A program made the position numbers and the translations under genes. From the NCBI GenBank assembly GCA_963575745.1, contig CAUYUJ010000021.1:1-64000 (forward strand): 64,000 bases of DNA, in the 5' to 3' direction. Shown here piece after piece: positions 3,107-64,000 of the stretch. The stretch comes from Prorocentrum cordatum (lineage: Eukaryota). The notes below the pieces were generated by a model. The model was not told the DNA's origin. It searched no databases and saw only the letters and a list, made by a program, of their open reading frames with translations. Within the stretch, counting starts at the first letter, position 1, and each line of letters begins with the position of its first letter.

Positions 3107-3200
<94 letters not shown>

Positions 3201-27574: not shown

Positions 27575-27733
27575 AGGTGCCTCAGAGAGCCTGCCTCAGC
27601 CCTCCGAGGAAGCGCCTTCAGAGGCATCTCTTCCCTCTTCGCGTCGTATCTCTTTCTTGTCATCTCATGTCTGTTTCGGCAGCAGCACGCGCAAGCTATC
27701 TGGTGTAGGGACACCCGTAGTCTTGCAGGGGGC

Positions 27734-30700: not shown

Positions 30701-33700
30701 ATTTTCCCCTACCTCACGTGGGACCTCCGCCAACCCACCACCGACGCGCCCACTGTCTTCTGGCATGGGACCCGCGGCGACCTTGCGGCCCGTCTAGCTG
30801 CCAGCGGAGGGCACCTCTTGCCAGGTCCCCGCCGTGAAGCGAAGGGCCGAACTGGCACCAACGTTGGCCGCACGTACGTGAGCGTGCACCCTTCGCTGGC
30901 CGCGTGGTACGCAATGCCGCCCCACCCGCCCTACAGTCTCGAAGACGACACCCTCGCGTGGGGACCCATCGCACTCTGGATGTGCGAGGCCACCCAACCA
31001 CCGCGCGGGGAGAACAGGCACAACTTCGTGAAAGGGGAAGCCCACGGAGCGCGTCTCATTTACCCTCGGGTCCTGAGCCCCCTCATCCGCATGGACTGGT
31101 GCGCCCCCACAGAAGCTGCCTCCAGGTGCCGTGCCCTACCACATGCCTATGGCATGGGCGACTGTGCGCACGCCCTCCACATCGCTGGCTACGATCATCC
31201 AGATCTCCGTGAGGCGGCTGAAGCCCACGACCAGGAAGCTAGCACCCGGCGCAGGCTGGACAGAGCGGCAGCGTGGCCACCGCCGCAGGCACTATACTCG
31301 CCAGAGGCAGCGCGAGTATGGGCCAAACAGCACTACGACACTGAAGCAGCCACCAGGGTCGACCCCAACCAGCCCCGTCCACGCGTCTCGCTTCGCAAGC
31401 TCCAGCTGGACCCGAAACCACTCATCGACCTGGTGTACACTGGCTTGCAAGCCGTCCCCGTGCGGGGGCATCCCGACGCACGCGAGTCGCGCCCCAGCGG
31501 CTCCAGCCCTGGGGCCGCGTCTGGCCCACCGCGCACTTACCAGTCAGGTGCAGCCCTGGCGCACAGTCCAGACCGCTCATCGACGACATCAGGAGCCGAC
31601 GACCGCCGTACGCTTTCCCTCATCAGCGCGGCCGCCGCCCTCGCCCGAGGCCACGCCCGCCCACGGCGATCCGCCTCCCGTTCGACACGGCAGAGTGGCG
31701 GAAACTCCACTTCGGACAACAGCGACATCGAGACGTGGGAGCACATCGAGACGGAAGAGGAGCCTACTGCCTACCACGTCCTCGCCTACCACGTCCGCGA
31801 TGTGCGGGCCCGTGCCAATGCCCCTGGCATCGAGGTCTGGCTTGACCCTGGTGATCACCACGACGGCGCCTACTTACCGTGGGGGACGACCGTCATGGGC
31901 CATCGCGTCATCGACCCTGCGGTGGCGGGGCGTGACGGCTGGGTCATCCTCCACCACGACCACGGCGACACCACTACCAAGCTCTGGGTACCGACTCAAG
32001 TCCACGTCAAAGCGGACGACACCTGGCGCACGGTCATGGTACCAGCGGACATGGGGCCCCAGTGGATCGAGCGCCATGCCGAGGACGCTCGCCTCCCCGC
32101 CGAGGTTGTCCGCACTACAGGCCAATCCTGGTTTGCCGACGTCTGGCCCTTGTGGGATCGCCCCCGACCTCACCCAGACGACCCAGGCACAAACGAGCAT
32201 GCGCTCCCGCCCCTACCAGGACGCTGGTCTTGCCTACAGTGCCGATTCCAATGTTGTCAGTACTGTGCGGCTCGCCGCAACACACAGCTCGGCACCTCGG
32301 GCCAACCAACGTGCCCAGACTGTGCCCGCTGCGGACTGCGTGCACTTATGGACTGGTCCACGGACTACTCTTGCAACAGTTGGACGTGTGCTTACAGCAC
32401 CGACAACAGGGACTCCGACACATGCTGCCTGTCCAGCAGGTGCCCCCATCCGCCCAGTCCACACAGCCTGCTCGACGTCCGTGCCACAGGGATGCCGCCG
32501 CACATCCTTGCCCGCCAATACGGCAACGCGCCAGCCCACCACGACCTCAAGGAACCCCCCCGAGCGCCTTCCGGCCCCGGGGGGGAGCCTCCACAACCAG
32601 GCCAAGCAGGTTACCAGGGTCAATGGTACTTTCCTCCGAGGCCGCGGCGCGTCCCCAGGCAGGGACTGCCTGACGGCACGAGGCGGCCACCTGGGTTCAC
32701 AGGAACGGGGATGCCCGAAGAACCGTCCCCCGACCAACCTCTCTGGAGGGAAGGCTACGTGCCCTTCGGCCCCCACCAGGCCCTCAAGGAGGAATTCACC
32801 TTCAACAAGACGGTCCGCCGACCCTACTCCCTAGCCATCACCAACATGTACAGGGACCGTGTCACGGTCAGGACCGTCTGCGAGTCGATCGCCGAGCGCA
32901 TCCACACTACCCGCACCCGCTGGCGAGATGTTGTACTGTACTGGGACGCCGAGGGTGGTCCTGGGCCTCAAGCTCTCGACTATGACATGCGACTCTGCGA
33001 CGCCATGGTGAGCCGTGCCACGACCGAAGCCGAGCTAAACCACGACCGCAGCAACCGTGGTAGTTTCTGTCTCTATGGACCAGCGCACCAGCGAGCTGCA
33101 AACATCACGGCGCTCTCCGAGCCGCAGAACATCGACTACACGGAGCATGTGCGGCGATACTCACCCGTAGGGGAGACCTACCCAGACCACGCCTTCGAGC
33201 ACGTCTATCGGGGCTGGCAGCGGCCCGACGTGCCCACCATCCTCCCCGACACCCGCCCCCTCTCGAGAGCCGACCAGCAGCGATATCAACAGCACCAGCA
33301 GCGCATTCAGCAGCGCGACCAACGCGACGCAGGACAGCCGAGCACGCCACGCTACCGCTCCCCCGCGCGCGTCCCGACTGGCGGCAGCACGGCCTACGGC
33401 GGGGCTGCCGCCTATCACCGTGGCCCCATTGGCGCCAGGCCCGCGGCGGCTGGAGCAGCCGCCTCCAGTTACGGCCATGCCCCTCACGCCAGGGTGCACC
33501 CAGCGGTCATCGGCTACCCGCGTGCACTCGTGCAGGCCCCCCCACGGGCCACATCGCCCGTGCCAGGGTCCACGCGCGCCTGGGGCCATTACCCAGGCCG
33601 CCATGACGGCACCCCCAGCAACCAGCCCGCAGTGGTAACCCCTGCGGCTTCAGCCCAGGGGGCTGCAACAAACCGTGGCAGGACAGGGCGCCCTGAAGGA

Positions 33701-36700
33701 TGGCGCGATGCGAACGAGCGTGCTTGGCAACCGCGCCAGCACACGCCCCCGCCAAACGTGGCCGCAGCGCTGCGCCCTGCCCAGGCAAAACCTGCCCCAC
33801 CTGAGCGGGAGAGGCAGCCGCTCGTCCCGCTCGTCCTCACGTACACCCAGGCGCATCACAGCGCCTCCCCGCGGCACAGCGAGGGAAGCGCCCATCACGT
33901 CAGCCCCCGCCCCGACGCTGTCGACCCTGACCAGGCCACAGCCACGGCGGAGGGTGGCACAAGCGGCGCCCGCCAGCCCAGCCCATCACCCTGCGCGGCG
34001 CCGATCCGCTCCCCGAGCAGGGCGGATTCCGAGCGCGCTAACGCCCAGGCGACCTCGCCACGCGACCGCCACACGGGCGGGCGCGTCCCGCGCAGCAGGT
34101 CCTGCAGCCGCCACAGCTCGCGCAAGGCCCCTGGGAGCTCCACGAGCTCGCCGCCTCGCGAGACTCAGGCTGATGGCCGAGCCCCCGAAGTGGTGCCGCG
34201 CTTCGGTGCCAGCGCCATCGAACCTGGCCAGGTCGACCTCGAGCCGACGCCGTCCACGGACCACGAGCTGCCGCTGCCCACCCGCGTGGTCGTCCCCATC
34301 GACGAGGCGCCGACCTTCGACCCGTTCAAGAACAAGTACCGCGTCAAGGACCTTGCGGCGGGTTTCGGCGGCGGCTCACCGCTCTCACCCCAGAGTCGGG
34401 GCGGAGCCCCCGCCACCTCAGCCGCTGCCGCGGCAGCGGCGGCCCCGCGTGGAGTCAGCCCTGTCCGCAACGCGTGCCTCGCGGCAGCGGGCATGGACGA
34501 GGCCCAGCGCCAGGCCACCGACCGCGCTGCTCGAGCTGTACCACCAGATGCTGCTCATCACGGTACTGACGGGGCGGGCGCGCCGCCGCAGGACGGACCA
34601 GCGGTGTCGCGTGCGCAGTATATGCGCGTGCGTTGCGCCGCTGCCGCGCCGAGCCGCCGCCGCTGGTTCGCTTTTGCTTTTGTGTTCGGCAGGACGGATC
34701 GAGGAGTCGCCTCCCTCTCCCTCTGCTGCCGTCTCACCTCTCCTCCCCTCGTCCCCTATGGTACAGGAGTGAGGAGGATTTTTCGAGGCAGTTTTACTGA
34801 TGTTTATGAACCCCCCCTGGCGCAGTGCCGACCATGTCTCGCCTATACTTCTGGCCCGACGGCGGCTTCGGCCCCGGTCAAGCCAATCCATAGGAACGCC
34901 ATGAGCTCCTACTGTGGCCAAGCCTTCTACCTGGGTGAGGGCCAGGCTGACCTCCACCGTGCGGGGCGTGCCAACCCCAGCTCCACCGATGGAGACGGGC
35001 CAGGTCGCTCCATACACCTCGTCAGCCTAAACATCACCAGTCTCTCAGCGAACTGGCCAACCATCACCGCTCTTGGTGTCGACCACAACGCCGCAGTCAT
35101 ATCACTGCAGGAGACCCGACATGCCAAGCCGACCAGACAAGCCATCGCTACCAACGCCGCCAATCCACACCACGGGGGATACCACGCCAGTCTGGGACCT
35201 GACCTGGATCTGGCGCGAGCCCAGCGCAGAGCTGCCCACGGCGGCACTGACCACACCGTCGTGGGCAACACTGGCACCTCGGGAGGGGTCGCCATCCTCT
35301 CCAAGGATGCCATCGTCGACTCCACTGTCGACGACACTGCGCCCTGTATCGTCACCCTCAAGGCCAAGAAAAGATGGCACGAGGCCTTCCTCCCGCTCTG
35401 CACTCAGCACCGCCGCAGGCGGCGACGAAACAACCACGGGCCCGCTGGGATCTACATAGCGAGCCTCTACGGGGTAGCTGGAGGAGACAGCACAGACCTG
35501 TTTCGGCTCGCTGACTGCGCCGCCGCAAGGGTCGGCTCAGCCCCGTATTTCATCTGCATGGACGCCAACACGAACATCGACGACAATCCACACCTGCTGC
35601 ACATGATGCAGCACGGATGGTTTAACGTCGCTGAGGGCACACCAGACCACACCATGCACACATACGGCAATATCCCTGACTGGGACCGCGTCACCAAGTG
35701 CCCCCGCACTTCGCGCATCGATTATATCATTGCCAACCAAGCGGCGCGATCCCTTGTCACCGACTTCTGCTATCTGCGCGACTTGCCAGCGAAGTCCCAT
35801 GTTGGCCTGCAGGTCACGCTTGACCTCAGTCGCCTCGACCATACGGCCCGACGCCTTCTTGCCCCCACGCCCTACCCTCCCAACGATGGAGCTCATGAGG
35901 GCCACGAACTGCAGGCACTAGGGACCCTCATCGCAGGGCGATACCAGGACCGCATGGAGCAGGCCGACACACGCGACGATGTGGAACGCATGTTCGCCCT
36001 GGCTAACGAGGCCAGCCATGAGTACCATCTCACCCGTCTGCGCGACCTGCCACCTCCACCGCCAGACCACCCAAAAAAGAAGCCCCCCACCATGCACGGG
36101 CTCACGCCCACGTTCGAGGAGCGACCCGTTGTCCCCCGCGCCTTTCCCACCTACGGAGCTTCCACGATACACATGAATTGCATGCGCAAGCTCCATCGGC
36201 AACTTTGTGAGCTTCGCTTCATCGGACAGCACCATCATTTAGACTGCCGTGCCATCCCGCCGTACCTGGCGCAGCGCATCGACTGCACGTGGACCGCGGC
36301 CCGCCTCCTCTGTCACAAGCTGCGCCCCACGGTTCTCCTGGCCCTTTCCCGAGGCCTGGACCCCCGACGAGCCAGCACCTCACGGAGAGCATCTTGACTG
36401 TCTGATCCAAAACCTCGACTCAGAGCTGGCGCGACGTGCAAACCGTGCCAAAGCTGAACGCATCAAGATATGGGCTGGGGGCGTCCGCGAGCCAAGCGGG
36501 CGAAAAAATAAAAAAAAAAAAAAATAAAAAAAACTAAAAAATAAAAAAAAAAAAAAAAGGAAAAAAAAAAAAATAAAAAAAAAAAAAAAAAAACAAAAAT
36601 AAACAAAAATAAAAACAAAAAAAAAAAAAAAAAAAAAAAAAAGGCGGCCATATACGCACGGGCTGCTGACAGCTCGCCCACGGCGTATCTCCGCACGCCT

Positions 36701-39700
36701 ACCACTCCCGACGATACACAACTCCACTGCGACACCAACGCCTTCAAACCTGACAAAGCTAGCACGGACGATAGTGACGCCGACACCGAAGCTGGCGGCT
36801 TCAGCCCCAGCGACGGTAGTTCACCCGACACGGACAACGACGAAGACCACACTTGTGAACCACCACCTGTACAGGTCCCCGACATCCTCCCTGCCAACGC
36901 CATTGTTGCTAATACCAAAGACATGCTTAAGCTCATGGTCGACACCTGGGAGCCCATCTTGGGCAGGTACCGCGCCCGTGCAGGGCATGACGCCGAAGCC
37001 ATGCCGACGTGGGCTGACTTCTACGACGAGTACCGACAAGAGCTGCCTACGCCATCACCAGCTGCCCCTTTCCACCTCACCGACGACCAACTCATCCACT
37101 TTATTCGCACCCGTTCACCGCGCCGTGCGGGGGGACTTGACGGCTGGACTACTAAGGAGGCTAAGGAGTTACCTGACGACATCCTTCGCCTCTTCGCCAG
37201 CGTCTTACGCGCTATGCAACGCACTGGCACCATCCCAGAACCCCTCCTTCACGTGCCAAACCCGTGCCTCCGAAAAGGCCGAGGGGAACTCCCAACAGAC
37301 CAACGACTTCTCTCGGTGCTTTCCGTTTGGATGTATGCGTGGGAAGCGCCAGCTTACCGCAGCCTCACGGACTGGCGGAAAGGATGGACCCACGCCACGA
37401 GTTTTGGCGCTGTTCCCAAAGCTACCATTGGGGACGTCAGCACCTCTCTCGCCCTGCGCATCGAGCACGCCAGGGCTTTACTCCTGCCCTTAGCTGGGGC
37501 TGCCCTTGACCGACAGAAGTGTTTCGACTACCTCATCACGGACATCTGCCTTAACCTTGCGCTTCACGCGGGGTGCCCCCAAGACATCGTTACTGTCCGC
37601 AGAAACTTCTACAGTCGCCACAAACGCTACATCCGCATGAACGGAGCGTACTCTAAGGACTTGGCCAGGACCAACGGTCACCTCCAGGGAAGCTCATGGT
37701 CCCTGGACGACATCAAGCTGCTCATGTGTGTGTGGACAAAGAGACAGCATCGATACGTTCCTCGATCACTCAGCACTACCTTTGTTGACGACAGCAACTC
37801 CACTACCCACACCGCGTCTGAGTTGCAGAAATCTCTTGACGAAACCGCCAAGTTTGATCGATTCTCAGGTCAACGCATTCACCCTGGCAAAGTGGCGGGG
37901 TGGGCGCTCACCGACGAGCTTCACGCCGCCGTTACCCAGCTCACTCTGGCGGAACGGCCCTTACGCGTGGTCGACTCCTTCAAGCTCGTCGGGAGTTACA
38001 TCAACGCCGAGGCAGCGCCGGCTCCAGCCGCGCTTAACCTCACGGCCACCGCTGACGCCCGTGTTCGGAGGGCGACTAGTCGCCTGCCGCGCATTGGCAA
38101 GCTCCCATCGCCGATGCTTATTAAGGCGCGGCACGCCCGTTCCCTTGCTGCCAGCGTCTGTACCACGGGCACCGACATTCAAGCCCCATCAGGCCCCGCC
38201 AAAACTGCCTACAACCACGCCCTCAAGGCGGCTATCCGCCCCAAGGGGAACAAGTGGGTCGAGTTCTGGACTCTCATGGCCGTGTGCGTCCCAGGACACG
38301 CCCTGGAGATTGACGCCATCACGCAGCGTGAAGCTTTCCTGTGCCTGCGGCGACAGGTTAACCGCGACGTTACACTCTGCGGTCTCGTCAGGGATCTCCA
38401 ACACCACGTCCAGACCCTGTTTGGTGGAGGACCTGTCGGACGACTCGTCCAGTCGCTCCAGCAGCTCCGTTGGACCTGGCCCACATTTGGCATCATGTAC
38501 GACGACTGGGGCTGCCAGATCAGCTGGCTGAACTTACCCCAAAACGCCTTCCTTCACATGCTGCGGGCCTCACAACGCAGAGCCTTTCTGCGGAGGATCA
38601 AGCCACGGCGACACGACCTTGGATACCTTGCCTCTGTCAGACAGGGCCTCGACCTCTTCGCCAGCACGTGGCTCGCCCGAACGAAAGGAGCAGCCAAATG
38701 CACTGCCTGGCAGCTGGCGCTCCTCCTGAACTACCTGTCGGGCGGGGACCGCACCCAACAGCGACGATCCCGATCAAACACGTCAGCTGACCCCAGCCCC
38801 ATCTGCCGATACTGCGACGAGGAAGAGGAAACTCAGGAGCACACTGTCCGCGACTGCAAGTGCTGGGCCCGAGAAAGACTCCCTCTCACCACCCTCATCA
38901 GTGACGAGCAGTGGGCCCGTCTCCCGCCGCACACAAGACACTGCGGGCTCTTCGATGAAGACCCAGCCCTCCTCGACCTGCAGGCCGACCTCGCGAGGGA
39001 CCCGCTACCTCAGCCCATACCGCGGCCCCCACCTGAGGGAGATCCTGCGGCTTCAGCCCAGGACTCCTACACCACCTACCTTGACCACGACACTGGTTGG
39101 ACATGGGTCTACGCTGCCACGGACGGTGCATGCACCAACCAAGCCATCCCATTGCTAGCACGAGCGGGCTACGGCGTCTACTACGGCATCGACCACCGCA
39201 TGAACTACAGTGCACGCGTTCACGGCATTACGCAGAACGCCCAGCTTGCGGAGACCCTCGCCATTGTCCACCTCACGGCATGTGCTGAACGGCCCGTGCA
39301 CGTTTTCGTGGACAACCAGGCGGTGGTCGATGGGTTCCAAAGCATCATCGACGGACACTCAGCACCGCAGGGCACGCACGTGGAGCTCTGGGAAAAGATC
39401 CACCGATGCGTTATGGCCAAGCCCAACATGTTCCGCGTCGAGAAAATCGCAAGCCACCTGGGAGACATGGGCATCGACCTCGGGCTCATCGGGCCCATTG
39501 CGGAGGAGTTCAATCGTCAGGCTGACGCCCTCGCCACAACGGCGGCACGCACTCACAACCTTCCAGACGACATTGTCGAAGCTGCCAAAACACGACATCG
39601 CCAAGCGACCGTGCTTCATGGGGTCGCTGTCGCCATCTACGAGCGTAGACACCGCACACTCCCGCTCCCACACCGCAGGGCTGGGTTTACAGCTGCGGAA

Positions 39701-40870
39701 CTCAACAAAATGGAACCAAACCCCCTGCTGTCGGACCAGGCACCACCCGCGGCTGGACCAGACATCCCACAGAACCCGGACGAGCTCTGGGCCGAGGCCC
39801 AACGGGCGATATTCGACGAACAGGAGGACGACCCGTTCGGCTTCGGCGGGGGACTTGACTTCCTAGGCGACGGGCCAGCCAGCGCCAACCTTGCCCCGTC
39901 GGGCATCCGCACGTCGCCCTCGACTCCGCCACCGAGAGCGGCACCGCACCCACATGACAACGCCGCTCACCTCCAAGACGCTGACGAACAGGAGGACGAC
40001 CCGTTCAGCTTCGGTGGGGGATCGGACGCCTTGGACGACGGCCCAGCCAGCGACAACCCTGCCCCGTCGGGCAACCTCTCGACGCCTACCGCGACTCCGT
40101 CTCCGAGAGCGACATCGCTCCCATATGATGATATCGGTCACCGCCAAGACGCCGACGACGACCTGGGTGACCCCCGCGGACTGAGTGGCATAGACGACGC
40201 ACCGCCGACACCCCACGCTGCCGACCATGCCGCCCTATCGAGACGCCACCCTACTACGCGGCTGACCTCAGAGCCCTCGCACGGCATCATGATTGGTCCC
40301 ACCGCGCAAACCACTCCGCCCCCCCACCAGCGGCAGCCCGCGGGGGCGGCTTCAGCCCCCCCGCAGGGCACTGAACCAGGCAGGCCCTCGCACCCCGTCC
40401 ACGCTTCCATCGTTGCTGAGCGAGAGGATGCGGCTCTCCCGACCTCTCGGGGCGTGGCCCTAGCGGCTCCAGCCCTGGGGTCGCGTGTTCCCCTCCAGTC
40501 ACCTTTCAAGGGTGACGGACGACAGCATACAGGGTGCCGTACTACGCTAGTCCACCATCTGGACAGGCGTACCGAGGACCTCGCCCCTGTCACGAGGCCC
40601 GCGGCCGCTGGCACTGAGCAGCCACCCCTCACCGACCGCGAAACCGAGCTGTCCCAGGCTATGGCTGCTCTCCAGCAGAGGTGCGTTGCTCTCGCCGCGG
40701 ACCTCGCCGCCGCCCAAGCTCGCCAAGGCCCTCTACTCCAGCGCCTCCACAGCGCCGGGCGAGCCTTCGCCGAGCTGCTTACGCCCTCGCCCGATGGTGC
40801 CGTGCCGTCACTCACCATCCAAGCTATGCTGTCATCGTTCCGCGGCGCTCCACCTGGTGCCCCGCGCTAA
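27734..40870 (+). pseudogene. LINE ORF2, copy 2, disrupted between APE and RT by a +1 indel (~36343) and an A-rich insert (36503-36642)
   Basis: ORFs 27734..36397 and 36923..40870 align to copy 1; RNase H is intact here (QNAQLAETLAI..VFVDNQAV). Confidence 0.85.
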
Positions 40871-47383: not shown

Positions 47384-48455
47384 GGAGCGTCGAAAAACGG
47401 CACGGGATGGCAAGCCGGCCCTGGGGAAGGGGTCGAGAACTCTGGGGTCGACGTAATGGAAAATTCATTACGTCGGGGGTCTGGGAGCAGAGGGGGCGAG
47501 GAGGGGCGCGGGCCACGAGCGGCCGCGCTGGGTCCCGAGGCCCGCCCCGCGCCCGAGGGCCCGGGGGGGCTGCGAGGGGCTGCGGGGCCCCGGGCCGCAA
47601 CCCACCGAGTCGCAGACTGCTGGCCAGCGGCCCTCTCAACGGGCCGCGGACGGAGCCCGCGCCGAGCGCTCCCCAAAGCGAAGAACTACTCCAGATTTCG
47701 TAATAAAAGACGCTACCCTGGAAAACCCGAGGGTTGGGGGAGAGCGCGGGGAGCGCTGCGCGTTGGGTAGGCGCGCGCCCGCGGGGGGGGGCGAGCGGCG
47801 CACTCGTCGCTCGCCGCTCCCCGCGGGAGCGCGCGGGTGCAGCGACACCCCGCGCCCCACCCCAACCAAAGGAGCGGCGAAGGGTGAGGGGAAACAAAAG
47901 CCGCCACGGCGGCCCGCGACGCGCGCACCGAGGGCGCCAGCCTCGCGTTCGGCCGACAAGCGCCCTCGGGGCAGCGCGCGCGACGCGGGGGTATATTTAC
48001 CCTCCCCCCACCGCAGGGAGACGTGGACAAAGAACACGAACAAGACGAGGAACACGAAGTCCATGAAGACCTGAGGCGAGCCACCCCAAACGCACCCCCC
48101 AACCGACCCAACCCGCCCCACCACAGGCACCGCGGCGAACCGCGGCGCCAGCGGCGGGGCGGCAGGGGTAGAAGGTTCCCAGGTCCGCGTTTTTGTGACA
48201 ACGAACAAAACTGCGTTGTGTTCTCGCCCACAAAAGACGCTACCCTGGAAAACCCGAGGGTTGGGGGAGAGCGCGGGGAGCGCTGCGCGTTGGGTAGGCA
48301 CGCGCCCGCGGGGGGGGGCGAGCGGCGCACTCGTCGCTCGCCGCTCCCCGCGGGAGCGCGCGGGTGCAGCGACACCCAAGGCCCTTGCTGCACCTGCGCG
48401 CGAGGAAAACCCAACGCTGTTCTCGCCGAAGGTGTTCTATAGGCTCACAGCCACC

Positions 48456-49886
48456 TCAGTCCTTGTCTTCGTCGCTGGACGAAGCGCCGCCGTGCGCTTC
48501 CCTGACGGCGCTGTCCTCAAGCGCATCCCTGTCTAAATATGACAGGAAGGCGGCGGACCGCCAATCTCCGGCGCGAAGGATGTCGGCCAGCCGCGAGCCA
48601 CGCACCGCCATGTCTTGGGCGTGGCCCCGACGAAAATCGTGGGTGCGATAGGCATCGTGCCGCGGCACCCCGAGCTCTTGCAGGGCCGCTCTCAACGCCG
48701 ATAGGACAGCGTCCGGGCGGAAACCCGCAAAAGGCTGCTGGGCCGCGCTGTCGGCGCAGAATTTCCCCAGCGCGTGCACGGGGCACGTTGATGGACAGCG
48801 CGCGCACCAGCACGTGCGCGTCATCGTGAGCGGCGTGGCGCGATTCTTGCGCCAAAGCAACGTCAGCGAGATCGAGCCGTCATGCAGGCGTAGGCAGCTC
48901 TTCGGCTCGACCGCCCGCGGCGGATCGCCGTCCCGAGCGACGTGCATCGGCAGTGCTTCCGACGGCAATCGCAACAGGAATATGTACGCCGTCAAGAAAA
49001 GCATCTGCAGCTCGCGCCCCGATTGGTGGCGTTCGAGATGCTTCAGTAATCTGGCGAGGAGCGCCTCCCGAATAAACATCTTGGGCCTGGCCTGCCAAGT
49101 GTTTCGCGCTTGCACCGCGCGAGCCGCGCGCTCGACTGCCGGGTCGCTCAGCGCGTCCAGCGGGACGCGCAACAGGATGCAGACTAATCTGACGTGCGAA
49201 ATATAGTTGTCGAATGTTCCTTTACAACGGAAGCATGTGCTCCACAATGCAAGGCCCTCGGGCGACGGCGGAATCACTTCCCCCGCGTCGCAGCCGAGCA
49301 CGGTCATGGCGAAAGTCGCCCAGCAGCGGAAGGCGCTGACTACGCTGGGCCACGTTTTCGGGCAGCTGCCCAGAATCGCGGCGACCCGAGCCGAATTCGA
49401 CCATTCGCTGAAGCTTCGCTGGGCGAGGCCCTGCCGCAGGGCCTCGACTTCACGGCGGGGGCCCGCGCGCGGCTCGATGGTGCACTGGCGCGCTATGCTG
49501 ACGGCCAGCTCAAGGTCCCGCACAGCACCGCAAGCCGCCGAAAGCTCATCGCACTTGGCAGCTCGCCGCCTGGCAGGGCGACTGCGGCTGCGGCACTCGC
49601 GCTGATGCACGTCGGGTGCAGGCGGAGGTTCGTCCTTTGCGCCGCGCACGACGGCAGATGGCTTCTTCGCTTCGTTAATTAACTCTGACAGCGCTACGCG
49701 CAGGGCGTCAGGGCTGACGCCTCGTTCCCCTTCTGCGGCAGACACCGGTTCGAACCAATCGACGCGCGCTAGCTGCAGATCTCTGAGATGCGTTATGTCC
49801 TGGCGCCGCAGCAACTCGATCAACGCAAAGGTAACCATGGGTGAAAGCTCTGGCAGGACGCCGCGGACCTCATGAAACAACGTCAT
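48456..49886 (-). CDS. Tyrosine recombinase (476 aa)
   Basis: Catalytic set R (LLRLPSE), K (WRKNR), HxxR (THDFRRG), W (AGDWRS), Y (FLSY). Confidence 0.92.
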   Translation of the reverse strand: MTLFHEVRGVLPELSPMVTFALIELLRRQDITHLRDLQLARVDWFEPVSAAEGERGVSPDALRVALSELINEAKKPSAVVRGAKDEPPPAPDVHQRECRSRSRPARRRAAKCDELSAACGAVRDLELAVSIARQCTIEPRAGPRREVEALRQGLAQRSFSEWSNSARVAAILGSCPKTWPSVVSAFRCWATFAMTVLGCDAGEVIPPSPEGLALWSTCFRCKGTFDNYISHVRLVCILLRVPLDALSDPAVERAARAVQARNTWQARPKMFIREALLARLLKHLERHQSGRELQMLFLTAYIFLLRLPSEALPMHVARDGDPPRAVEPKSCLRLHDGSISLTLLWRKNRATPLTMTRTCWCARCPSTCPVHALGKFCADSAAQQPFAGFRPDAVLSALRAALQELGVPRHDAYRTHDFRRGHAQDMAVRGSRLADILRAGDWRSAAFLSYLDRDALEDSAVREAHGGASSSDEDKD

Positions 49887-49889
49887 GGC

Positions 49890-52460
49890 TTATCGCTCGA
49901 CTGAGCGCCCGTCGCTGGCTGCGCTGGGACCGCGCGCTGACGCATAGGACAACCGACCAGGGGCCCATCGATGGGGCCGGTTAACGACGCAGCTTCCACT
50001 GTCGGCTTTTGGCATCAACTCGCGCGGGCCGCCCTCGCAAGGCACGCGCGAGGCATGGCTCGCAACGGGCTCGACGCGGGACAGCGGCTCACTCGCCTTC
50101 GTTGCTTCGTGCCGCCTTCGATGCGCAACGGCGCTCGCGGGGCGCGACGACGCGCGACGGCGCGCTCCCGCCGGCAGAGCGCGGGCCAGAAACGTCTCCG
50201 GTGCGAAGAACTCAGCCGCGCGTAAGCGCGGCGTCACGAAGTTCGCCCCAAGAACACGTAGCAACTCGTACTCCTCCCGCGACGGAAGGTCGGCGATGTT
50301 CTCTGCTGATGGGACCCGCGCAAACCACGGCGAACACCGGGTGCGTGCGATGAGGAACCACATGGCGTGAATGATGCGGGAGTGGTCCCAAGCGGAAGCG
50401 CGACCGCTCCGCACTGCCCCTTCTGCGCCCACATTGTCGGACCAAATCACCACTCGGCGGTCCGCCAGCAGTTCACTAAAGGTAGCTAATCCCAGCGCTA
50501 TAGCGAGCAGTTCTAACGCCATAATCTGAGAGTCCCGGCGCGGCGCCAAGTCCTCCAGCAGCTCCTGGTCTGGAGGGGCGTCGGACCAGAAGGCGCGACC
50601 ATCGACGAACAGCACGGCGGCGAGCCGTGGATCGGACCCGCCCCTTGCGTCAGCGAACAAGTGCACTTCTTGCCGTTCCAGCTGCGCCCACGGCTTGGAC
50701 TGATGGATGCCGAGGGCCAGCACCTCCGCCCACCATGACAGCGCCAAGTTGAGCGGGGCGCGAACGACACCCCGTCGCGCATTCTGCTGCGCGAACAGGG
50801 GCTGCAACATCGCACGCCCTAGCCGCTCGAAGCAATGTTGACCTGCCCAGCTGAGAGCGCCGGCCAGCTTGCTGGCTTGGCCGGCACATAGTGTCCCGCA
50901 GTCGAGCGCTTGCTTGATCAAGAAAAGCCACTTGCGCACCTTCTTGGGCGCGGGAAACAAGTTGATCCCGCTGAGAGAAAAGGACACATGCAGGCCCAAA
51001 ATCTCCAGCTCGTCGCCACATTCCAGCTTCTTATCGGAAACCGCTCCTGGACCTAGGAGCAGGCGCACTAGTCTGGCCAGCGATGCCATGGTATGCTCTT
51101 TAGTTGCGGGTGCGCACGGCCCAAAGAAATCGTCCACGTATCGGAGGGTGGGAATCTTTAAGAGCTTGCGGGCGAGGTGCGCCAAGGCAGCTCCGACTCG
51201 GTCCCACCCAAAGACGGCAGCCAGGGCGCCGAACATCAACGCCAGGTGACCAGTGACCCAAATGTCTCCGTCGTGCAAATACGTGCTGTAAGCTGCCCAC
51301 CTGTGGCAAGGCCGACAACGACACCGCAAACGCCGGGTTCCTCTGGAACCCCGACACGAGCACCCCAGGTCGATGCTTTTAACGGGGGGGGGCACCCGGA
51401 AATCCCGAGCCTGTGTTCAGGAGCGATAGGCACACGCCGGTAAGCGGAGTCGATGTCAGCCTTAAACAGTGCCGGTGCGTGCCCGCGCAGACCGTGATAG
51501 CAGCGCAGGGCGTCCACCAAAACGTCAGCCCCGTCCAGCAACAACCTCTCGGCGGGCTGGCACGCCGAGTTGATGCCCCCTCTCGATTCATCGTCTACTA
51601 CGCGAACCTTGGGCGCGCCATCCGGCTTGACGCCCTGCACAATGGAGAAACGCGGGGACAGACGCACCCTGCCCAAGTCCGCCTTGGCCAGCACAACCGG
51701 AGCGGTCATCCGCGACAGAGACGCATCGGCGAGCGCGCCCTCGTGGATCGCAGACGAGTTCACGTCCTCTCGCAAGGAAGACAAAATGGCTCTATTGTGC
51801 ACGGGGGAGGAGGTCAGCAACTCCTCGGACGACGTGGGCTCCGGGAATTTCTTTGCGGGCCCTCTGCCCGCATGGGGCAGCTTTCCGAGCAAAGGCGCGC
51901 CGTAGCGGAACAGATCAGCCGCGGCCGTGTCATCGTAGCTCGTCATGTCGAGCAGAGCAGCTAAAAGCGGCCCATTCACGTCGGCGGACACGGCGCGCGT
52001 CGCGTCGTCAGCGCCGGCGAACCATTGCTCGACGGCCCCGTCACGTCGTAACGCTTGTCCCCACGCTTCCAGGCGTGATAGCATATTGTCGCGCAGACGC
52101 ATAACCTCTACGCTGTCTCTGGACGCTTCCCACTCTATGGCGCAGCGAACGTCTTCCTCAATCCCGCGCGATGGCGCGATGTGAAATCCGTCCTTCATTG
52201 CACAGTTGATAAATTCTATCTTCTGCACGTCGCCAGCGTCAAGCTCTCCTACAACGCGACAGATTTTTAACGCGCGCGCGCGGGAGCAAAGACGGATACG
52301 CGATGGGGCCTTTCGACAAATGGGCTTGCACCCCGCCCACCGCGGGAGCGCCCGCGCCGGCAACTTCTTCCAGTGAAACAACCGGTGTAGGCTGCGCCCC
52401 GCGCGTCCACACCGAATTGGTAGCCTGCGCAAGCGCGACGCCACCGCGCGCGACATACAT
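49890..52460 (-). CDS. RT/RNase H; predicted exons 52460-52310, 52248-51411, 51300-49890 (~799 aa, start uncertain)
   Basis: KVRVVDD, FKADIDSAYRRVP, LMFG, RYVDDFF; RNase H LFADA, ALELLA, WSDN, ENIADLPSR. Frames join on removing GC-AG introns 52249-52309 and 51301-51410. Confidence 0.88.
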
Positions 52461-52604
52461 GTAGGTGCGCCGCGCTTCCAGCCTCCTGTCCGCGGCATGC
52501 TTCACATGTCACCGCTGGACTCTCAGCTGCGCCTGCGCGCCGTCCGGCTACCGCCGTCGCGCGCGCGCGCACCGACCCGCGCCTGCGCGGCGCAGGAACG
52601 TTGA

Positions 52605-53835
52605 TCAGCGCTCGTGATGCCTGGCTCTCTTGGCCCGCGGCTCCCCGTACTCGCCGCGGTCGTTCGGCGCCGCCGGGGGCGCAGGCGGGAACTTGCCCTT
52701 GCCGCCGCCCTTGGCGCCCTTGCCGCCGCCCTTGCCGGGTTTTCCGCCGCCCTTGGCACCCTTGCCCCCGCGGGGGGCTGAGCGCTCCTGACTTTCGCGA
52801 TCGTACGCGGCCTCTGCCTCGCCCAAGAGAGTCACATCGATCGTTGCCACGACAGTTTCGATGTCGAGGGAATCATCACCGGCGCGAGACCTCTCTGCCC
52901 AAGTGCGCCGGCAAATCTCATCGTATACGAGCCCCAGCGCGCCACTCCGATTAGCATTGGGCGCCTGCGCGGCCACCTGCCGCGCCGCGCGCGCATCGCA
53001 CTCGCGCCGCTGGATCCGCAGAGCAACGGCGATAGGCGGGCCTTCATGACGTTCTGGCGGTGGCGAATCGTCGCAGCCAGCGTCATCTGCTCCGTGCAGA
53101 CGCAAGCGATGGCGTACCTACGCGCTCGGACGACGCCGTTGCTCTTGGGTGCGCGCCCCGCGCGCAGACGCGTGCACCTGTCGAAGGCGGCATGCCATTG
53201 CGTGAAAGTGAGCGACTTCGCTTTGACTGGGTTCGCTACGCCGAGCGCGCGCGAAAGGTCGCGAAGATCCCGAGACATGGGCGGGCCCTCATCAGCCTCC
53301 TCTTTCGCGCTCTTCGATTCTGCCCAGGACGGCAAGAACTTCTTCAGGTCAGCGAACACAAATGGCCGCTTGATGCCGCGACGCTGCAGCCGCTTCACGT
53401 CCGTCTCGAGGGCGTCGACCGCCGCGGACCGCGGCCAAAACGCCTGGCCCACATCCTTCAGAGCGCCTCCTTGCAACTTCGCCTGAATGTCCACGTGGCA
53501 CATCGGCTCAGGTGCTGACCCGCTCCCGGCCGCGCTGCCTGCGCTGGCCGGATCAGCCGCGCGCTGTTCCTCCGCTGTCAGAGACTTCGCGGCAGCCATC
53601 ACTCTGGCTAAGAAGGAGCGCTTACCCGCGGACGGGTTGCCCTGCAGTGCGCCGGGATCTGCAAACGCAAGATCACGCACTGACTCCAACTCATTGTCCT
53701 GCGCGCGAGGCACTGGCGCGTCGTGGCGGCATTCGCAGCCGCTCGCGGCGCCTGGCATAGGGCTGCGCACTGCCGAAGCCACTCGGCGCCGCGGCTTGTA
53801 TCATCATGGGCCGCAAGAAAATCAGCCAGGCTCAT
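52605..53835 (-). CDS. Gag-like ORF; predicted exons 53835-53752, 53698-53178, 53117-53042, 52976-52605 (~350 aa)
   Basis: Lies upstream of pol. Splicing gives ..CAALCQ|DNELES..AAFDR|YAIA..NVMK|VAAQ..YDEICRRTWAER.. and a GKG-rich tail. Confidence 0.72.
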
Positions 53836-53994
53836 GGACAGCGTGGGCGTTGCAGCGCACATCGCTGGTGTGGCCGCGGCGCGCCCAACGGCGTATGCGG
53901 CTCGCGTCTTCTGCCTGCGCGCACTGCTGGCTCCGTCGCGTAACAACGATCATTGCGCGCGTCTCCTGACGAATGTCAACACGCTGGGCGGCGG

Positions 53995-54705
53995 AAACCG
54001 GTCGCATTGACGCGGTAATATTGGCGTGGTCGCACTGACACGGTCGCGCTGACACGGTCGCAATGACGCGTTCGCTTTTACACATTCGCATTGATACGGT
54101 CGCGGCGAGACGGACGCGTTGACACGGTCGCAACGGCACGGTCCCCTTGACACGCCCCACAAGACACGGACGCAGTGACGCGGAGAAATTGGCACGGTCG
54201 CAACGACACGGCGTAATTGACGCATTGCGTTGACGCAATCGAAAAGACGCGGTCGCATTGACACGGCCTTACAGACGCGGTCGCATTGACGCGATCTTAC
54301 TGGCGCGGTCGCGTCGACACGGCCCAGGCACGGTCGCATTGACACGGCCGCATCAACACGATCACATTGACGCGGTCATACTGGCACGGTCGCATTGACA
54401 CGGCCATAGCACGGTCGCATTGACACGGCTTTATCGACACGGTCGCACTGACACGGTCGTATTGGCACGGTCGCATTGACACGGCCCAGGCACGGTCACA
54501 TTGACACGGCCTTATTGACCCGGTCTCACTGACACGGTCGTATTGGCACGGTCGCATTGACACGGCCATAGCACGGTCGCATTGACACGGCTTTATCGAC
54601 ACGGTCGCACTGACACGGTCGTATTGGCACGGTCGCATTGACACGGCCCAGGCACGGTCGCATTGACACGGCCTCATTGACACGGTCATACTGACACGGT
54701 CATAC
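53995..54705. repeat. ~13-14-bp minisatellite (TGACACGGTCGCAT) in the 5' leader of the YR element
   Basis: Dozens of copies, homogeneous next to A1 and decaying toward gag. Confidence 0.92.
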
Positions 54706-55619
54706 GGAAACAAAAGCCGCCACGGCGGCCCGCGACGCGCGCACCGAGGGCGCCAGCCTCGCGTTCGGCCGACAAGCGCCCTCGGGGCAGCGCGCGCGAC
54801 GCGGGGGTATATTTACCCTCCCCCCACCGCAGGGAGACGTGGACAAAGAACACGAACAAGACGAGGAACACGAAGTCCATGAAGACCTGAGGCGAGCCAC
54901 CCCAAACGCACCCCCCAACCGACCCAACCCGCCCCACCACAGGCACCGCGGCGAACCGCGGCGCCAGCGGCGGGGCGGCAGGGGTAGAAGGTTCCCAGGT
55001 CCGCGTTTTTGTGACAACGAACAAAACTGCGTTGTGTTCTCGCCAATAAAAGGGAGGGAGTCTGGACCCTACAAGACAAGCCATTTCAGACCCCCCCCCC
55101 GTGGGAGAACCCTCCAAAACATCGTCCCCAGACCCCCCAGGCCCTCCAAGATAGCCTGGAAGAGACCCCCCCCCGAAATGAGACCCCCCTCCCTTTGTTA
55201 CGAAATCTGGAGTACCTCCTGGGATCTGGGTACAACGGCCCCTCGCCGAAGCTCTGGCTCAAGGCATCCCGGCTCACATCCGATACGTAGACCTTCCCCT
55301 ACAGTCTGCGCTCGCCCTATCATATGTTGCCCTCTCTTCTCTGCTCGTCGCTCCAGGACGGTGGCACAACGCCCTCTCCGAGGAGGTCGAGGCGGAAGAG
55401 GGGGAGGAGGGTGGTCGGGCCCATATTGGGGCTCACGGCTGCGCGGCGGCGGGCGTCCTCCGAGTGGCGATCGGGGCATCGACGTCGTCGCCCCCAACCT
55501 GGCGACGGAGGAGGAGGAGGAGGCGAGGAGCCAGTGCACGTCACGTGATGTATGCCATGGACGGCAAGGCGCTGCCTTCTAAAGCAATGCTGGCTTGAAA
55601 GTCTTGCCACTCCCCTGTC

Positions 55620-57844: not shown

Positions 57845-58600
57845 GTAGGATTTTGTAGGACTCCTGCAGGTAAGGAGTCTTGAAAGTTCCTGAAGGATTC
57901 CGGAAGGATTCCTGGCGGACTCTTGAAGGATTCCTGCGCAATTCTCTGAGGATCCCTGGAAGACTCCTGGAGAATATCCGACGAATTCCTGAAAGACTCC
58001 TGAAGAATGCCTGAAGGATTCTTAAAGATTCCGGAAGGATTCCTAAAGGATTTCTCAAGGATTCTTCGAGGATTCCCAGAAGATTCTTGGATGATTCCTG
58101 CAGGATTCCTAAAAGGACAGTTGGAGAATTCCAATAGGAATTCTGAAGGATTCCTGACAGATTCCTGACGCCTGAAGGATCCCTGAAGGATTCCTGGTAG
58201 ACTCCTGAAAAATTCTTGGGGGATCCCTGAAAGATTCCTGAAGGATTCCTGAAGCATTCTTCAAGGAATCTTGCAACCTTTCTGAAGGATCCCAGCAGGA
58301 TCTTTCGTGGATTCCTGACGGAATCCAGAAGGATCCCTTAAGGATGCCTGAAGGATTTTCGAAGGATTCTTGGAGGAGTCCTGCGGGATTCCTGAAAGAT
58401 TATTGGAGGATTCCTGAAGGATTGCTGAAGGATTCCTGGAGGACTCCTGAGGGATCCTTGAAGGATTCCTGAAAGATTCTTGAAGGATTTGTGAAGGAAA
58501 ATTTTCGGAATCCTAGAACAAATTATTTGATGATTCCTGAAGGAATCCTGAAGGACCCCTGAAGGAGTCCAGCAAGATTTCTGAAAATTCCTGAAGGATG
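57845..58600. repeat. 11-bp minisatellite (GGATTCCTGAA)
   Basis: Direct reading, degenerate copies. Confidence 0.93.
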
Positions 58601-59139
58601 CCCAGACTGACGATTGTCATGGTGGTGCTGGTTATGACGTCGCTGGTGATAATAATTCGCACCTGGTGGCCATCGGTCCATCCCGCCTCCGAGCCGGGGT
58701 TGCGTGTCAGAGGCCTCTGGGATACAGTCGGGGTATCGTGGGAAGCCTTTGGGAAGCTTCTTCTGGGAGGCACGTCTAAAGCCTGCTGAAGCCTTCTGGG
58801 GCTCCTGCAGGCCTCTGGGGGCCATCTAGGGGCAGCCTCTGCGGAGCCCGTTGGCGGTCTCGGGGATTATCTTGAGCATTCTTGGGCGCCTGCTAGGCCG
58901 TCTTGGGGCCCCCATCGAGCCATCTTGAGGTCTCCTTCGGGGCCTTTTGGGTCGTCCTGGGGCGGTCAGGGGAGCCTCTTGGGCCGTCTGGAACGCTGCC
59001 AGGATCGATCAGGCCAACATGGCTACACATGTGAGTTTGTCCACAGGACTGTGACGACGTTGTCCTCTTGGGGCCTTCTTGGAGCCCTCTTGACAATACC
59101 CGTGGCATCAGCACGGCTCCCGATGGTCGGCTACGACCA

Positions 59140-62850
<3,711 letters not shown>

Positions 62851-63344
62851 TTCCCACTACTGCCGTTTGTCGATCTGATGGACCACACCCACTTTTTCAA
62901 ATTTCAATCGGGATGCGTAAGGGGAGTCATTGTATCCAGAAGCGCTCTGGTGGTTTCTCCCTAAGTCGGGACCTTACTGAAGCGTCCCAACAACGCTCTC
63001 GACCACTTCGGACAGATCGCATCTGGTTGAAATCGGTCCCAAGTGGTTCCTGAACGAATCGTAGTGGATTCGATCGGTCGTGCTCGAGGGGGGGGTGGTC
63101 GAGGGGCGATCGCGTGTGTGTGTGTGGCCCGTTGGGTGTTTGTGTGGCCCGTTGCGTGTGTGTGTCCCGGCGAGCAGCCAGCCAGATGCGCGTAACTGTG
63201 GCCCGCGCTGGCCCGTGAGTCAAAAATATGTTTCAAAATCTGCGGAAGGCCTCCTCTGTTAGCTGAGAACAAATGGAAAAATCCTAAGAGATTGCATGTA
63301 TTACAAACGGAACAGAGTGGCATGTGTTTTGAAAGCACTCTGGT

Positions 63345-63488
63345 GATAGTACTAATGGTGATGGCGGCGACGGTGGCAGTGGCAGCAGTAGTGGTAGTAG
63401 TAGCAGTAGTAATAATAATATTAGTAGTACTAGTAGTAGTAGTAATAGTAGTAGTAGTCGTAGTAGTAGCAGTAGTAGTAGTACTAGC

Positions 63489-63520
<32 letters not shown>

Positions 63521-63582
63521 CAGTAGTAGCAGTAGTAGTAATAGTAGTAGTAGCAGTAGTAGTAGCAGTAGTAGTAGTAGTA

Positions 63583-63632
<50 letters not shown>

Positions 63633-63653
63633 ATAGTAGTAGTAGTAGTAGCC

Positions 63654-63695
<42 letters not shown>

Positions 63696-63880
63696 ATAGT
63701 AGTAGTAGTAGTCGATCATAGGAAGTAACCGTAGTACTAGTAGTAGTAGTACTAGTAGTAGTAGTCGTCGTCGTCGTCATAGTAGCATTAATAATCGGAA
63801 TCGCAGTTGTAGCCGTAGCAGGAGTCGTAGTAGCAGTAGTGGTAGTATGAGGAGTAGTAGTCATAGTAATAGCGGTAATA
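63345..63880. repeat. (TAG)n microsatellite
   Basis: Direct reading. Confidence 0.95.
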
Positions 63881-64000
63881 CGTTATCTTGAAAAATGTAG
63901 GGATATATAGAAGTAGTCGTTGTCGCTTGTCGCAGTAGGTCGTAGTGGGTGATGGTGGGCCGTTGGTCGAGGTCAGTAATAGTGGTCTGTCTAGTCCTAC

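Follow-up and report, generated by a model that had tools for sequence, protein, structure and literature searches.

A probable, recently integrated tyrosine recombinase retrotransposon with intron-like interruptions in gag and reverse transcriptase in Prorocentrum cordatum

We have analysed a 64,000-nucleotide stretch of Prorocentrum cordatum DNA (contig CAUYUJ010000021.1, positions 1 to 64,000; the window) and find that positions 55052-47705 of its minus strand probably hold a complete and very recently integrated tyrosine recombinase (YR) retrotransposon of the DIRS order, in which both gag and the reverse transcriptase (RT) gene are interrupted by putative introns. Copying through RNA should strip introns, yet this young YR retrotransposon appears to have several inside essential genes. 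An initial annotation had already read the region as a retrotransposon whose direct repeats are split and which encodes a tyrosine recombinase, and this is supported by self-comparison with blastn, by the junctions and by the weak matches to Cre recombinase described below. All the features given here lie on the minus strand and are numbered as in the window, which has a G+C content of 61%.

The order along the element is repeat B, a leader array, gag, RT/RNase H, YR and then repeats A, B and A. The split direct repeats, one of 347 nt at the 5' end and three of 146, 347 and 146 nt at the 3' end, are 99.3-99.4% identical. The 5' terminal repeat, 'B2' (54706-55052), corresponds in blastn to the 3' copy 'B1' (47890-48236) over 347 nt (99.4%), and the 3' copy 'A2' (48232-48377) corresponds to 'A1' (47705-47850) over 146 nt (99.3%); the latter forms the end of the element, as located by blastn and junction comparison. 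The two mismatches between the 347-nt copies, at 55047 and 55045, both fall in the junction core adjoining the outer junction, and the 146-nt copies have a single difference. Since the split repeats are thus nearly identical (345/347 and 145/146), the insertion is recent, as had been proposed. The core of the internal A2-B1 junction is CTTTTGTG, and CTTTTATT is present at both outer junctions; a recombination core and an 8-bp duplication are both admissible readings of this. In the leader, which separates the 5' repeat from gag, a repeat-family search and self-blast delimit a tandem array (53985-54705) with a base unit of 14 nt and higher periods of 67 and 81 nt. Elsewhere in the 64 kb, blastn self-comparison found no other copy of the element, and none of the six segments discussed below recurs. 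The window is rich in other duplicated DNA, with two tandem copies of ~16.25 kb.

The pol gene ends in an exon C (49890-51300, stop TAA at 49892-49890), identified by homology, which carries RT motifs B-E including YVDD, together with RNase H; 4470 library proteins match it at E ≤ 0.001, and its RNase H region is followed by ~90 residues before the stop. Exon B (51411-52248), located by tblastn of relatives, holds the N-terminal part and RT motif A, with residues 87-365 of P0002 aligning to 52246-51410. A candidate exon A (52310-52460, ATG at 52460-52458) has a codon-usage score of +1.9, compared with -1.3 for the unspliced alternative frame from the ATG at 52498; conservation of this exon was not found in distant relatives aligned with MAFFT. 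The window's own RT and RNase H pieces matched no Pfam family, and 13 of the 24 aligned relatives matched RVT_1 (best E 6e-7) and one RT_RNaseH. Matches in the Protein Atlas were only to unnamed clusters and RVT_1 clusters, and the RT/RNase H profile gave 0 matches at E ≤ 0.01 against PDB sequences. A structure model of the 82% identical sister P0177 (pLDDT 88) matches the solved RTs of CaMV, foamy virus, Ty3, HIV-1 and MLV with E of 5e-12 to 3e-9 and a probability of 1.00; as modelled in this sister, the RT fold is present in the family.

The ATG of the recombinase ORF (48456-49886, ATG 49886) comes 3 nt after the pol stop in the same frame. The ORF is assigned from weak Pfam and PDB matches and from visible motifs. 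Its match to Phage_integrase (E 0.11, residues 394-447, below the cut-off) is the sole Pfam signal among the ORFs of the window at E ≤ 10, all 16 of its PDB matches are to Cre recombinase, weakly (E 0.41-0.62) and over the catalytic C-terminus, and an HxxR motif and a C-terminal Tyr are visible in the sequence; its single-sequence fold (pLDDT 37.6) was too poor for use. Compared with a relative of ~91% identity, 24 of the 38 changed codons are synonymous and 24 of the 40 substitutions listed, out of 320 differences, are at third codon positions, a comparison confined to the YR gene and to contigs of the relative that possibly derive from more than one copy. This argues for purifying selection on the recombinase, as far as such a sample of substitutions allows. 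No ORF of the window matched a DDE-type integrase in Pfam, nor did any match a methyltransferase domain at E ≤ 10, although a very divergent one is conceivable.

The repeats are of the Ngaro type, a class read here from repeat layout and domain content rather than from an RT or YR tree. Ngaro elements have the same A1 ... B1-A2-B2 arrangement of split direct repeats as that found here and likewise encode gag, RT/RNase H and YR with no methyltransferase, according to PMC13465315; the window element differs in that its ORFs are interrupted by short GY-AG segments. PAT-like (kangaroo) elements and DIRS-1 are YR retrotransposons too, the former with split direct repeats (PMC6681497). DIRS-like elements usually have a methyltransferase domain after RT/RNase H, for which the window element gave no match, and DIRS-1 has inverted repeats and an internal complementary region, whereas the repeats here are direct (PMC13465315 for both). 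The SymbioDIRS elements of Symbiodinium share the A-coding-B-A-B repeats, the separate YR ORF and a divergent RT missed by Pfam, but are described in PMC5890265 as intronless, some with DNMT; the window element is interrupted and gave no DNMT match. Descriptions of introns in DIRS, Ngaro or PAT elements were not found in the literature searched, and the fungal YR elements with introns mentioned in the initial annotation found no corroboration, PMC3783388 containing neither 'intron' nor 'splic'.

Five segments had been described as introns with a sixth as a candidate, and direct reading together with a script returned the same coordinates, lengths and ends for all six. Each begins with GC or GT and ends with AG, and each is, as had been noted, preceded by AG and followed by G. 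Without the first three segments gag reads as a single open frame, and without the last two so does pol, with the RT motifs in it. Only two of the frame breaks are obligatory, however: that at the 65-nt segment in gag and that at the 110-nt segment in RT. The earlier statement that four segments repair frame breaks exactly therefore holds for these two but not for the 60-nt segment, which is in frame and free of stops, nor for those of 53 and 61 nt, which are bypassed by ATGs. A random segment of the element has GY at its start and AG at its end with a probability of 0.012 per cut, and the full AG|GY..AG|G pattern with one of 1.2e-4; with ~13 cuts scanned, the minimal GY..AG signal would occur by chance with a probability of ~0.15 per site. 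The dinucleotides alone are thus weak evidence, and it is the comparative evidence that carries the case. Codon-usage scores do not exceed +1.3 in any intron frame, and those of the gag exons are +58.6, +5.1 (the short exon 3) and +25.8. Evolution of a non-coding kind between conserved exons was found for introns 2, 3 and 5, and weakly for intron 1. Comparison of sequences thus gives good support for the 60-, 65- and 110-nt segments being non-coding, whereas the 53- and 61-nt segments are possible introns that are not required, as in-frame ATGs exist without their removal. Of the 'at least five' introns first proposed, three non-coding segments with GY-AG ends stand and two are not needed for an open frame.

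In gag, the candidate exon 1 (53752-53835, ATG at 53835-53833; codon-usage score +1.2) joins exon 2 in frame if the putative intron 1 (53 nt, GC-AG, 53699-53751) is removed. Exon 2 can also be entered in frame from another ATG, at 53758, which reads GTG in the loose end of the ~91% relative. In the same relative two of the three changes in the last 15 nt of exon 1 are synonymous in the proposed frame, and identity across the intron boundary is 9/15 on the intron side and 12/15 on the exon side. Exon 2 (53178-53698) has a codon-usage score of +58.6, compared with -79 and -77 for the two alternative frames; its identity to P0215-P0218 is 57-96%, with conservation beginning at its first codon. 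Intron 2 (60 nt, GT-AG, 53118-53177) has no coding signal in any frame. The ORFs of P0218 (57%) and P0216 (89-91%) terminate inside it, and the conservation of P0218 ceases at its 5' edge, but translation could pass through the intron in P0215 and in the window copy, where it is in frame and has no stop. Exon 3 (76 nt, 53042-53117) is recognised by homology, with 20 of 25 residues identical to P0222, and by a third-position G+C of 0.88 in the proposed frame.

A change of frame between exons 3 and 4 makes intron 3 (65 nt, GC-AG, 52977-53041) an obligatory break. In P0222, a 67% relative, its place is taken by 22 codons (66 nt) of low conservation, with conserved exons on either side; this run starts with Ala (GCN), ends with Gln and is in frame and stop-free, so that it may be translated there. 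Exon 4 (52605-52976, stop TGA at 52607-52605) encodes Gly/Lys-rich repeats and is identified by codon usage (+25.8) and by relatives P0219-P0223, of which P0220 and P0221 have ORFs that start at its first codon. The sixth candidate (50 nt, GC-AG, 52533-52582) has the ends described and lies in the non-coding spacer between gag and pol, where coding signal is absent in every frame.

In pol, the putative intron 4 (61 nt, GC-AG, 52249-52309) also has the ends described. Read upstream, the frame of exon B stays open as far as 52501 and contains an ATG at 52498, and the homology of relatives starts at 52264-52222, near the 3' edge of this segment. Intron 5 (110 nt, GC-AG, 51301-51410) is an obligatory break inside RT that is defined by homology and by length variation. 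It has no counterpart in any of the 16 relatives with a continuous ORF spanning the site, each of which is one ORF predicted on a metagenome or Logan contig. In 13 of the 16, two alignments abut at 51410/51299, with as many unaligned residues as unaligned codons; in P0007, P0178 and P0180 the first alignment extends into the intron, and the overlapping residues align better downstream. When the intron is removed, MAFFT alignment of nine relatives restores the conserved ..P..RW.. without a gap, and the junction ..PEHR|W.. given in the initial annotation is exactly the sequence of the relatives. Homology fixes the length at exactly 110 nt and the place to within ~2 codons. The sequence CACAG|G is repeated on either side of intron 5.

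We compared the assembled contigs of four runs, in which intron 5 is 110, 109 or 108 nt long; two length variants occur together in run X9. Most of the runs that contain the window's sequence carry the label marine metagenome. Splice joints were not seen in the contigs compared, a kind of data in which a spliced or intron-less form could be missed. Every fixed indel in these runs lies in intron 5: within 51353-51384, X4 has one gap, X7 has two and X20 record 3 has three listed of its four, with 0 gaps in the other X20 records; the RNA label of X20 is only a guess, and its cover excludes 52140-52513, ~53130-53183 and the region beyond 53736. Among the gaps listed for the ~91% relative none falls in the RT exons. 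Sister P0177 is continuous across the site, which had been named in advance as a sign that the breaks were indel errors. The sister's frame is indeed open here, but the break is an insertion of 110 nt common to relatives diverged by ~9%, and it is therefore not an indel error; with the 110 nt common to several runs, sequencing error was also rejected as its cause. The RT intron was most likely gained in the lineage of the window's element; gain rather than loss is the direction suggested by its absence from 16 relatives, the 82% sister and 15 that are more distant. Long open frames are kept in relatives, as in P0176 (462 aa at 99%) and P0152 (402 aa at 92%).

A scan of JGI metagenomes gave two distant loci, L001 and L002, both with short interruptions at other sites and both colinear with the continuous relatives. 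L001 has three, of 59 nt (GC-AG), 55 nt (GT-AG) and 68 nt (GT-AG), and L002 at least five, of 56-85 nt; these junctions were searched under a GY-AG constraint, and the GY-AG cuts are 3 to 8 points below the best unconstrained cut. A scan of viral contigs found no close relatives. Near-identical spliced products of pol (257-821 aa) and gag (177-564 aa), and in a further range of 93-298 aa, were not found among the predicted proteins searched, most of which come from DNA assemblies.

From these features we infer that splicing removes the short (53-110 nt), G+C-rich GY-AG segments as spliceosomal introns of the type normal for the host. A single long transcript of the element would be spliced in part, and the spliced portion would be translated into Gag and RT/RNase H, with ribosomes re-initiating 3 nt past the pol stop to make YR. 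These proteins would then act in trans on intron-retaining RNA, so that new copies made by its reverse transcription keep the introns, and the recombinase would insert the copy at a short core, CTTTTRTK. An unspliced or antisense RNA had been proposed as template; intron-retaining sense RNA is the simpler inference, and no observation here favours an antisense one. Ogre LTR retrotransposons of legumes offer a parallel: they carry one intron, its removal restores the polyprotein frame and unspliced RNA is the template, although they use a DDE integrase. Retroviruses package unspliced RNA, which also encodes Gag-Pol, and translate spliced forms too; judged from its frames, the unspliced RNA of the window element, unlike theirs, would be unable to encode RT.

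Penelope-like elements keep introns after retrotransposition, which is called 'highly unusual among retroelements' in PMC8557442, but they belong to another RT clade and have a GIY-YIG endonuclease and pseudo-LTRs; the introns studied there lie in the 5' UTR and most ORFs are uninterrupted, whereas several lie inside gag and RT here. Pfam gave no match to these Penelope hallmarks in the window element, which has a YR-like ORF and split direct repeats instead. In Emiliania huxleyi, with a genome of 65% G+C, GC makes up 56-65% of donors, and reads cover the whole intron in 478 of the 535 that were inspected, or 89% (PMC4028052). By this analogy the GC donors may fit Emiliania-like hosts as well as dinoflagellates.

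Of the alternatives, a family that moves as DNA is unlikely but deserves the most weight. The recombinase would excise and re-insert a circle between direct repeats, as in Cryptons, with splicing serving expression only, and the introns would be kept because there is no RNA intermediate. The intact YR gene under apparent purifying selection, and the direct repeats with an 8-nt core common to both outer junctions, are in keeping with this, as are the Crypton DNA transposons themselves, which encode YR and often contain introns (PMC13465315). Cryptons, however, have no RT or gag, and the window element has both; its RT/RNase H exons are open and long frames are kept in P0176 and P0152. The ~91% relative has three listed gaps (of four) in the 110-nt segment and none listed in the RT exons, which suggests that RT is still needed, and in Ngaro and PAT the split-repeat layout is tied to reverse transcription (PMC6681497, PMC13465315).

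We consider it improbable, too, that the interruptions are never spliced and that this is a crippled, non-autonomous family, its RT broken by the 110-nt insertion and its gag by a 1-nt length change, copied in trans by intact intron-less relatives of the P0177 type in the same genome. Such a history would account for the continuous RT ORF of a close sister, the absence of the RT insertion from all more distant relatives, an intron 3 that is one base off an in-frame 66-nt version, and the absence of the spliced product from the predicted proteins searched. It does not sit well with an RT insertion that is common to copies ~9% diverged and flanked by exons without a listed indel, with the mostly synonymous changes in YR, or with gag ORFs of relatives that end in intron 2 while exons 3-4 are conserved downstream. 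The AG|GY..AG|G ends on all segments and the similar short GY-AG interruptions elsewhere in two unrelated relatives (L001 and L002) also speak for introns.

It is highly improbable that there was no recent transposition and that the repeats were homogenized by gene conversion or segmental duplication, or that we are dealing with a host-domesticated gene cluster with ordinary introns. The two ~16.25-kb tandem copies show that duplication has occurred in the window, but the split-repeat architecture is complete with sharp junctions, the element is present there as a single copy, run X9 holds two length variants of the RT intron, and terminal repeats are not expected in domesticated genes. Bridging of the breaks at translation, by programmed frameshifting or ribosomal bypassing, is the least likely alternative: retroelements commonly frameshift between gag and pol, but these breaks are within genes, that in RT is a 110-nt insertion inside a conserved motif, and its length varies by 1-2 nt between runs. 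With the letters of the window copy, lengths of 110 and 109 nt cause a frameshift and an in-frame TAA is met at 108 nt; with no length version of intron 5 readable through, translational recoding at the RT site was rejected.

Returning to spliceosomal introns kept through an intron-retaining template, we put forward as a tentative possibility that a marine-algal Ngaro-like clade has repeatedly gained such introns in gag and RT at lineage-specific sites, with only spliced RNA making RT and only intron-retaining RNA being copied. If true, the division of labour would reverse the retroviral one. Retention of the introns might then serve a purpose; for instance, they might be a passport that admits the RNA to expression or export where the host regards transcripts lacking introns as foreign, or alternatively might carry a signal that marks the template RNA. 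This raises the questions of how a retroelement picks unspliced RNA as template when that RNA is unable to encode its own polymerase, and at what rate introns come and go in a sequence with an RNA stage in every generation. Transposon annotation based on ORFs or Pfam will miss or fragment such elements, since the window copy has no Pfam match beyond the faint integrase signal. Such a family would let the gain and loss of introns be followed directly, and the window element can be compared with an intron-less sister and with relatives whose introns lie elsewhere.

Sixteen relatives span the site of the 110-nt segment in the reverse transcriptase (RT) gene (51410–51301, minus strand), each of them a single open reading frame (ORF) on a metagenome or Logan contig. 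For 13 of them, the paired tblastn alignments meet precisely at 51410 and 51299, leaving no residue of the relative unaligned; for the remaining three, the first alignment extends slightly into the segment. When nine relatives were aligned by MAFFT with the product spliced by script, the junction was gap-free and the conserved ..P..RW.. motif was restored. An unconstrained scan gave an excised length of exactly 110 nt and fixed the cut position to about two codons, the GC..AG cut being among the top three products. The segment is 110 nt long in the window, 109 nt in contigs of sequencing run X4 and 108 nt in those of X7, and X9 has two versions. Across the four runs, the gaps in contigs spanning the segment fall inside it, at 51353–51384 (one in X4, two in X7). 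An X20 contig (50308–51485, ~91% identical to the window) has three of its four gaps listed at 51353–51384, the remaining X20 records, ~2460 aligned bases, have zero gaps, and X9 has some minor, partial-depth indels at other positions. With the window's letters, the 110- and 109-nt versions shift the frame and the 108-nt version meets a TAA. None of the three versions can be read through by translation, while the surrounding exons are intact.

Minus-strand reading and excision by script gave lengths of 53 (53751–53699), 60 (53177–53118), 65 (53041–52977), 50 (52582–52533), 61 (52309–52249) and 110 nt for the six segments picked out in the initial annotation. Their 5′ ends are GC in five cases and GT in one, and their 3′ ends are AG throughout; an AG stands before each segment and a G after it, and their G+C content is 61–86%; the lengths, GC/GT-AG ends and AG..G flanks originally described are reproduced. 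Once the first three segments are excised, gag is a single open frame to the TGA at 52607–52605, and excision of the 61- and 110-nt segments leaves pol as a single open frame with RT motifs to the TAA at 49892–49890. The 61- and 110-nt segments have in common the octamer CGTTAAAA (52263–52270 and 51376–51383, minus strand), which is A/T-rich and unusual for this G+C-rich element; the sharing may be chance.

In gag, P0218, encoded like the sister P0177 on a 6717-nt contig, is 57% identical across exon 2 (53178–53698) from the exon's first codon and ends within the first few codons of the 60-nt segment, and the ORF of P0216 (89–91% identical) also ends in that segment. P0222 (67%) runs in one frame through exon 3 (53042–53117), 22 poorly conserved codons and exon 4 (52605–52976), so that the spacer is 66 nt there as against the frame-breaking 65 nt in the window. 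The first residue of this stretch is Ala (GCN) and the last Gln, which is consistent with what GC..AG ends would require. The ORFs of P0220 and P0221 share their first codon with exon 4. Codon-usage scores are +58.6, +5.1 and +25.8 for gag exons 2, 3 and 4, respectively, and at most +1.3 for every intron frame.

With the five proposed introns excised, the gag and pol frames are open, but two of the five, the 53- and 61-nt segments, are dispensable for open frames. The first is not needed because the ATG at 53758 is in frame with gag exon 2, the frame that relatives' ORFs use; the second is not needed because the frame starting from the ATG at 52498 continues unspliced into the RT exon. In favour of a putative 53-nt intron is the 30-letter loose end of the X20 relative, in which GTG replaces the ATG at 53758 and the donor GC is kept; its exon part is identical at 12 of 15 positions and its intron part at 9 of 15, with two of the three exon changes synonymous in the exon-1 frame. 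At the start of pol, codon usage scores +1.9 for the spliced alternative versus −1.3 unspliced. The 50-nt candidate lies in the spacer between gag and pol.

On the coding strand, the element runs from repeat B through a tandem array to gag, RT/RNase H, the recombinase and repeats A, B and A. Self-comparison showed the repeats to be split direct repeats, the two B copies (54706–55052 and 47890–48236) matching at 345 of 347 positions and the two A copies (48232–48377 and 47705–47850) at 145 of 146. Both B mismatches fall within an 8-nt core; the two outer junctions share CTTTTATT as this core, whereas the internal A–B junction has CTTTTGTG (55045–55052, 48229–48236, 47697–47709). The core resembles a site of crossover by the recombinase or a duplication of 8 bp, and may point to CTTTTRTK as the target. 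Because the long repeats are otherwise identical, the insertion is very young. The leader array (53985–54726), between the 5′ repeat and gag, has ~50 units of 14 nt and a higher-order periodicity at 67 and 81 nt. Three 21-nt repeats encode the Gly/Lys-rich tail of gag (52699–52771). At 52713, 3 nt are missing from one X4 contig, and numerous contig loose ends from all four runs begin at 52692–52737, so repeats of this kind are also present in other sequences.

Searched against Pfam, the gag and pol pieces of the window itself gave no match. For the C-terminal pol exon (49890–51300), 4470 relatives in the library reach E ≤ 0.001, and RVT_1 is matched by 13 of 24 relatives that were aligned. The AlphaFold model (pLDDT 88.2) of P0177, an 82% sister, matches solved structures of the caulimovirus, foamy virus, Ty3, HIV-1 and MLV reverse transcriptases with E values of 5e-12 to 3e-9. 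The last ORF, of 476 codons, gave faint matches over its catalytic end, to an integrase in Pfam (E 0.11) and to Cre in all 16 PDB matches (E 0.41–0.62). Its ATG lies 3 nt past the pol TAA in the same frame, with one codon (GCC) between (49884–49892), a spacing that suggests termination–reinitiation or read-through. No methyltransferase match was found in the element, and by domain content it therefore fits better with Ngaro than with PAT or DIRS1.

The ORF of the sister P0177 (77–82% at the amino acid level) is continuous across the RT site, as are those of all more distant relatives, so the putative RT intron would have been gained in the window's lineage or lost elsewhere. The two JGI metagenome loci recovered (contigs of 53–54% G+C) are distant relatives whose RT/RNase H is broken by short GT/GC-AG segments at positions other than those in the window. 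L001 has three such segments, at 1875–1933 (59 nt, GC-AG), 2579–2633 (55 nt, GT-AG) and 3090–3157 (68 nt, GT-AG); in L002 there are at least five, of 56–85 nt (806–861, 1516–1574, 1821–1899, 2097–2176 and 2378–2462), one of them lying two codons away from the putative RT intron of the window. The unconstrained scan upholds these lengths, the cut positions being chosen under the GY-AG rule.

Copies ~9% apart have the putative RT intron in common. In the X20 relative, third codon positions account for 24 of the 40 listed differences, and the change is synonymous in 24 of 38 altered codons; the 40 (of 320 in total) are tool-selected, all in the recombinase gene, and on contigs that may derive from different copies. 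Long open exons are kept in relatives (P0176, 462 aa at 99%; P0152, 402 aa at 92%). Together, these observations argue for selection having acted after the RT intron arose.

The simplest account is that spliced RNA would be translated into the element's proteins, which would act in trans on an intron-retaining RNA that is reverse-transcribed; we infer the splicing itself from DNA comparison. Ogre elements and retroviruses offer parallels. Such copying would be easy in a host whose introns are pervasively retained. In E. huxleyi, GC donors are reported to be in the majority (56–65%), with reads throughout the intron for 89% of 535 inspected introns (PMC4028052). Such donors suit an Emiliania-like host no less than a dinoflagellate, and the dinoflagellate link drawn in the initial annotation is not required. 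Movement at the DNA level by the recombinase would keep the introns too. It is also possible that the family is crippled and copied in trans by intron-less relatives. Recoding at translation is ruled out by the frame shifts of the 110- and 109-nt versions and the TAA in the 108-nt version. Penelope-like elements typically keep their introns, a trait described as highly unusual for retroelements (PMC8557442). Our literature search for introns in DIRS-order elements found no report, and DIRS elements of Symbiodinium are described as lacking introns (PMC5890265), in contrast to the putative introns here.

At least half of the sampled window words occur in 15 of 24 listed runs, from nine studies (eight once the possible source is set aside), most labelled marine metagenome. 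Elsewhere in the window (61% G+C), a large unit on the plus strand is present in two tandem copies 16254 nt apart (8714–24459 and 24968–40867), with giant open frames of 868, 1003 and 3470 aa in the first and 868, 2940 and 1441 aa in the second; four of these ORFs gave no Pfam match at E ≤ 0.001. Long simple-sequence arrays are of CT/GA type at 45.1–46.2 kb, of an 11-nt unit at 57.9–58.5 kb and of CTA type at 59–63.9 kb, and G+C falls to 42–46% past 58 kb (58000–63900).
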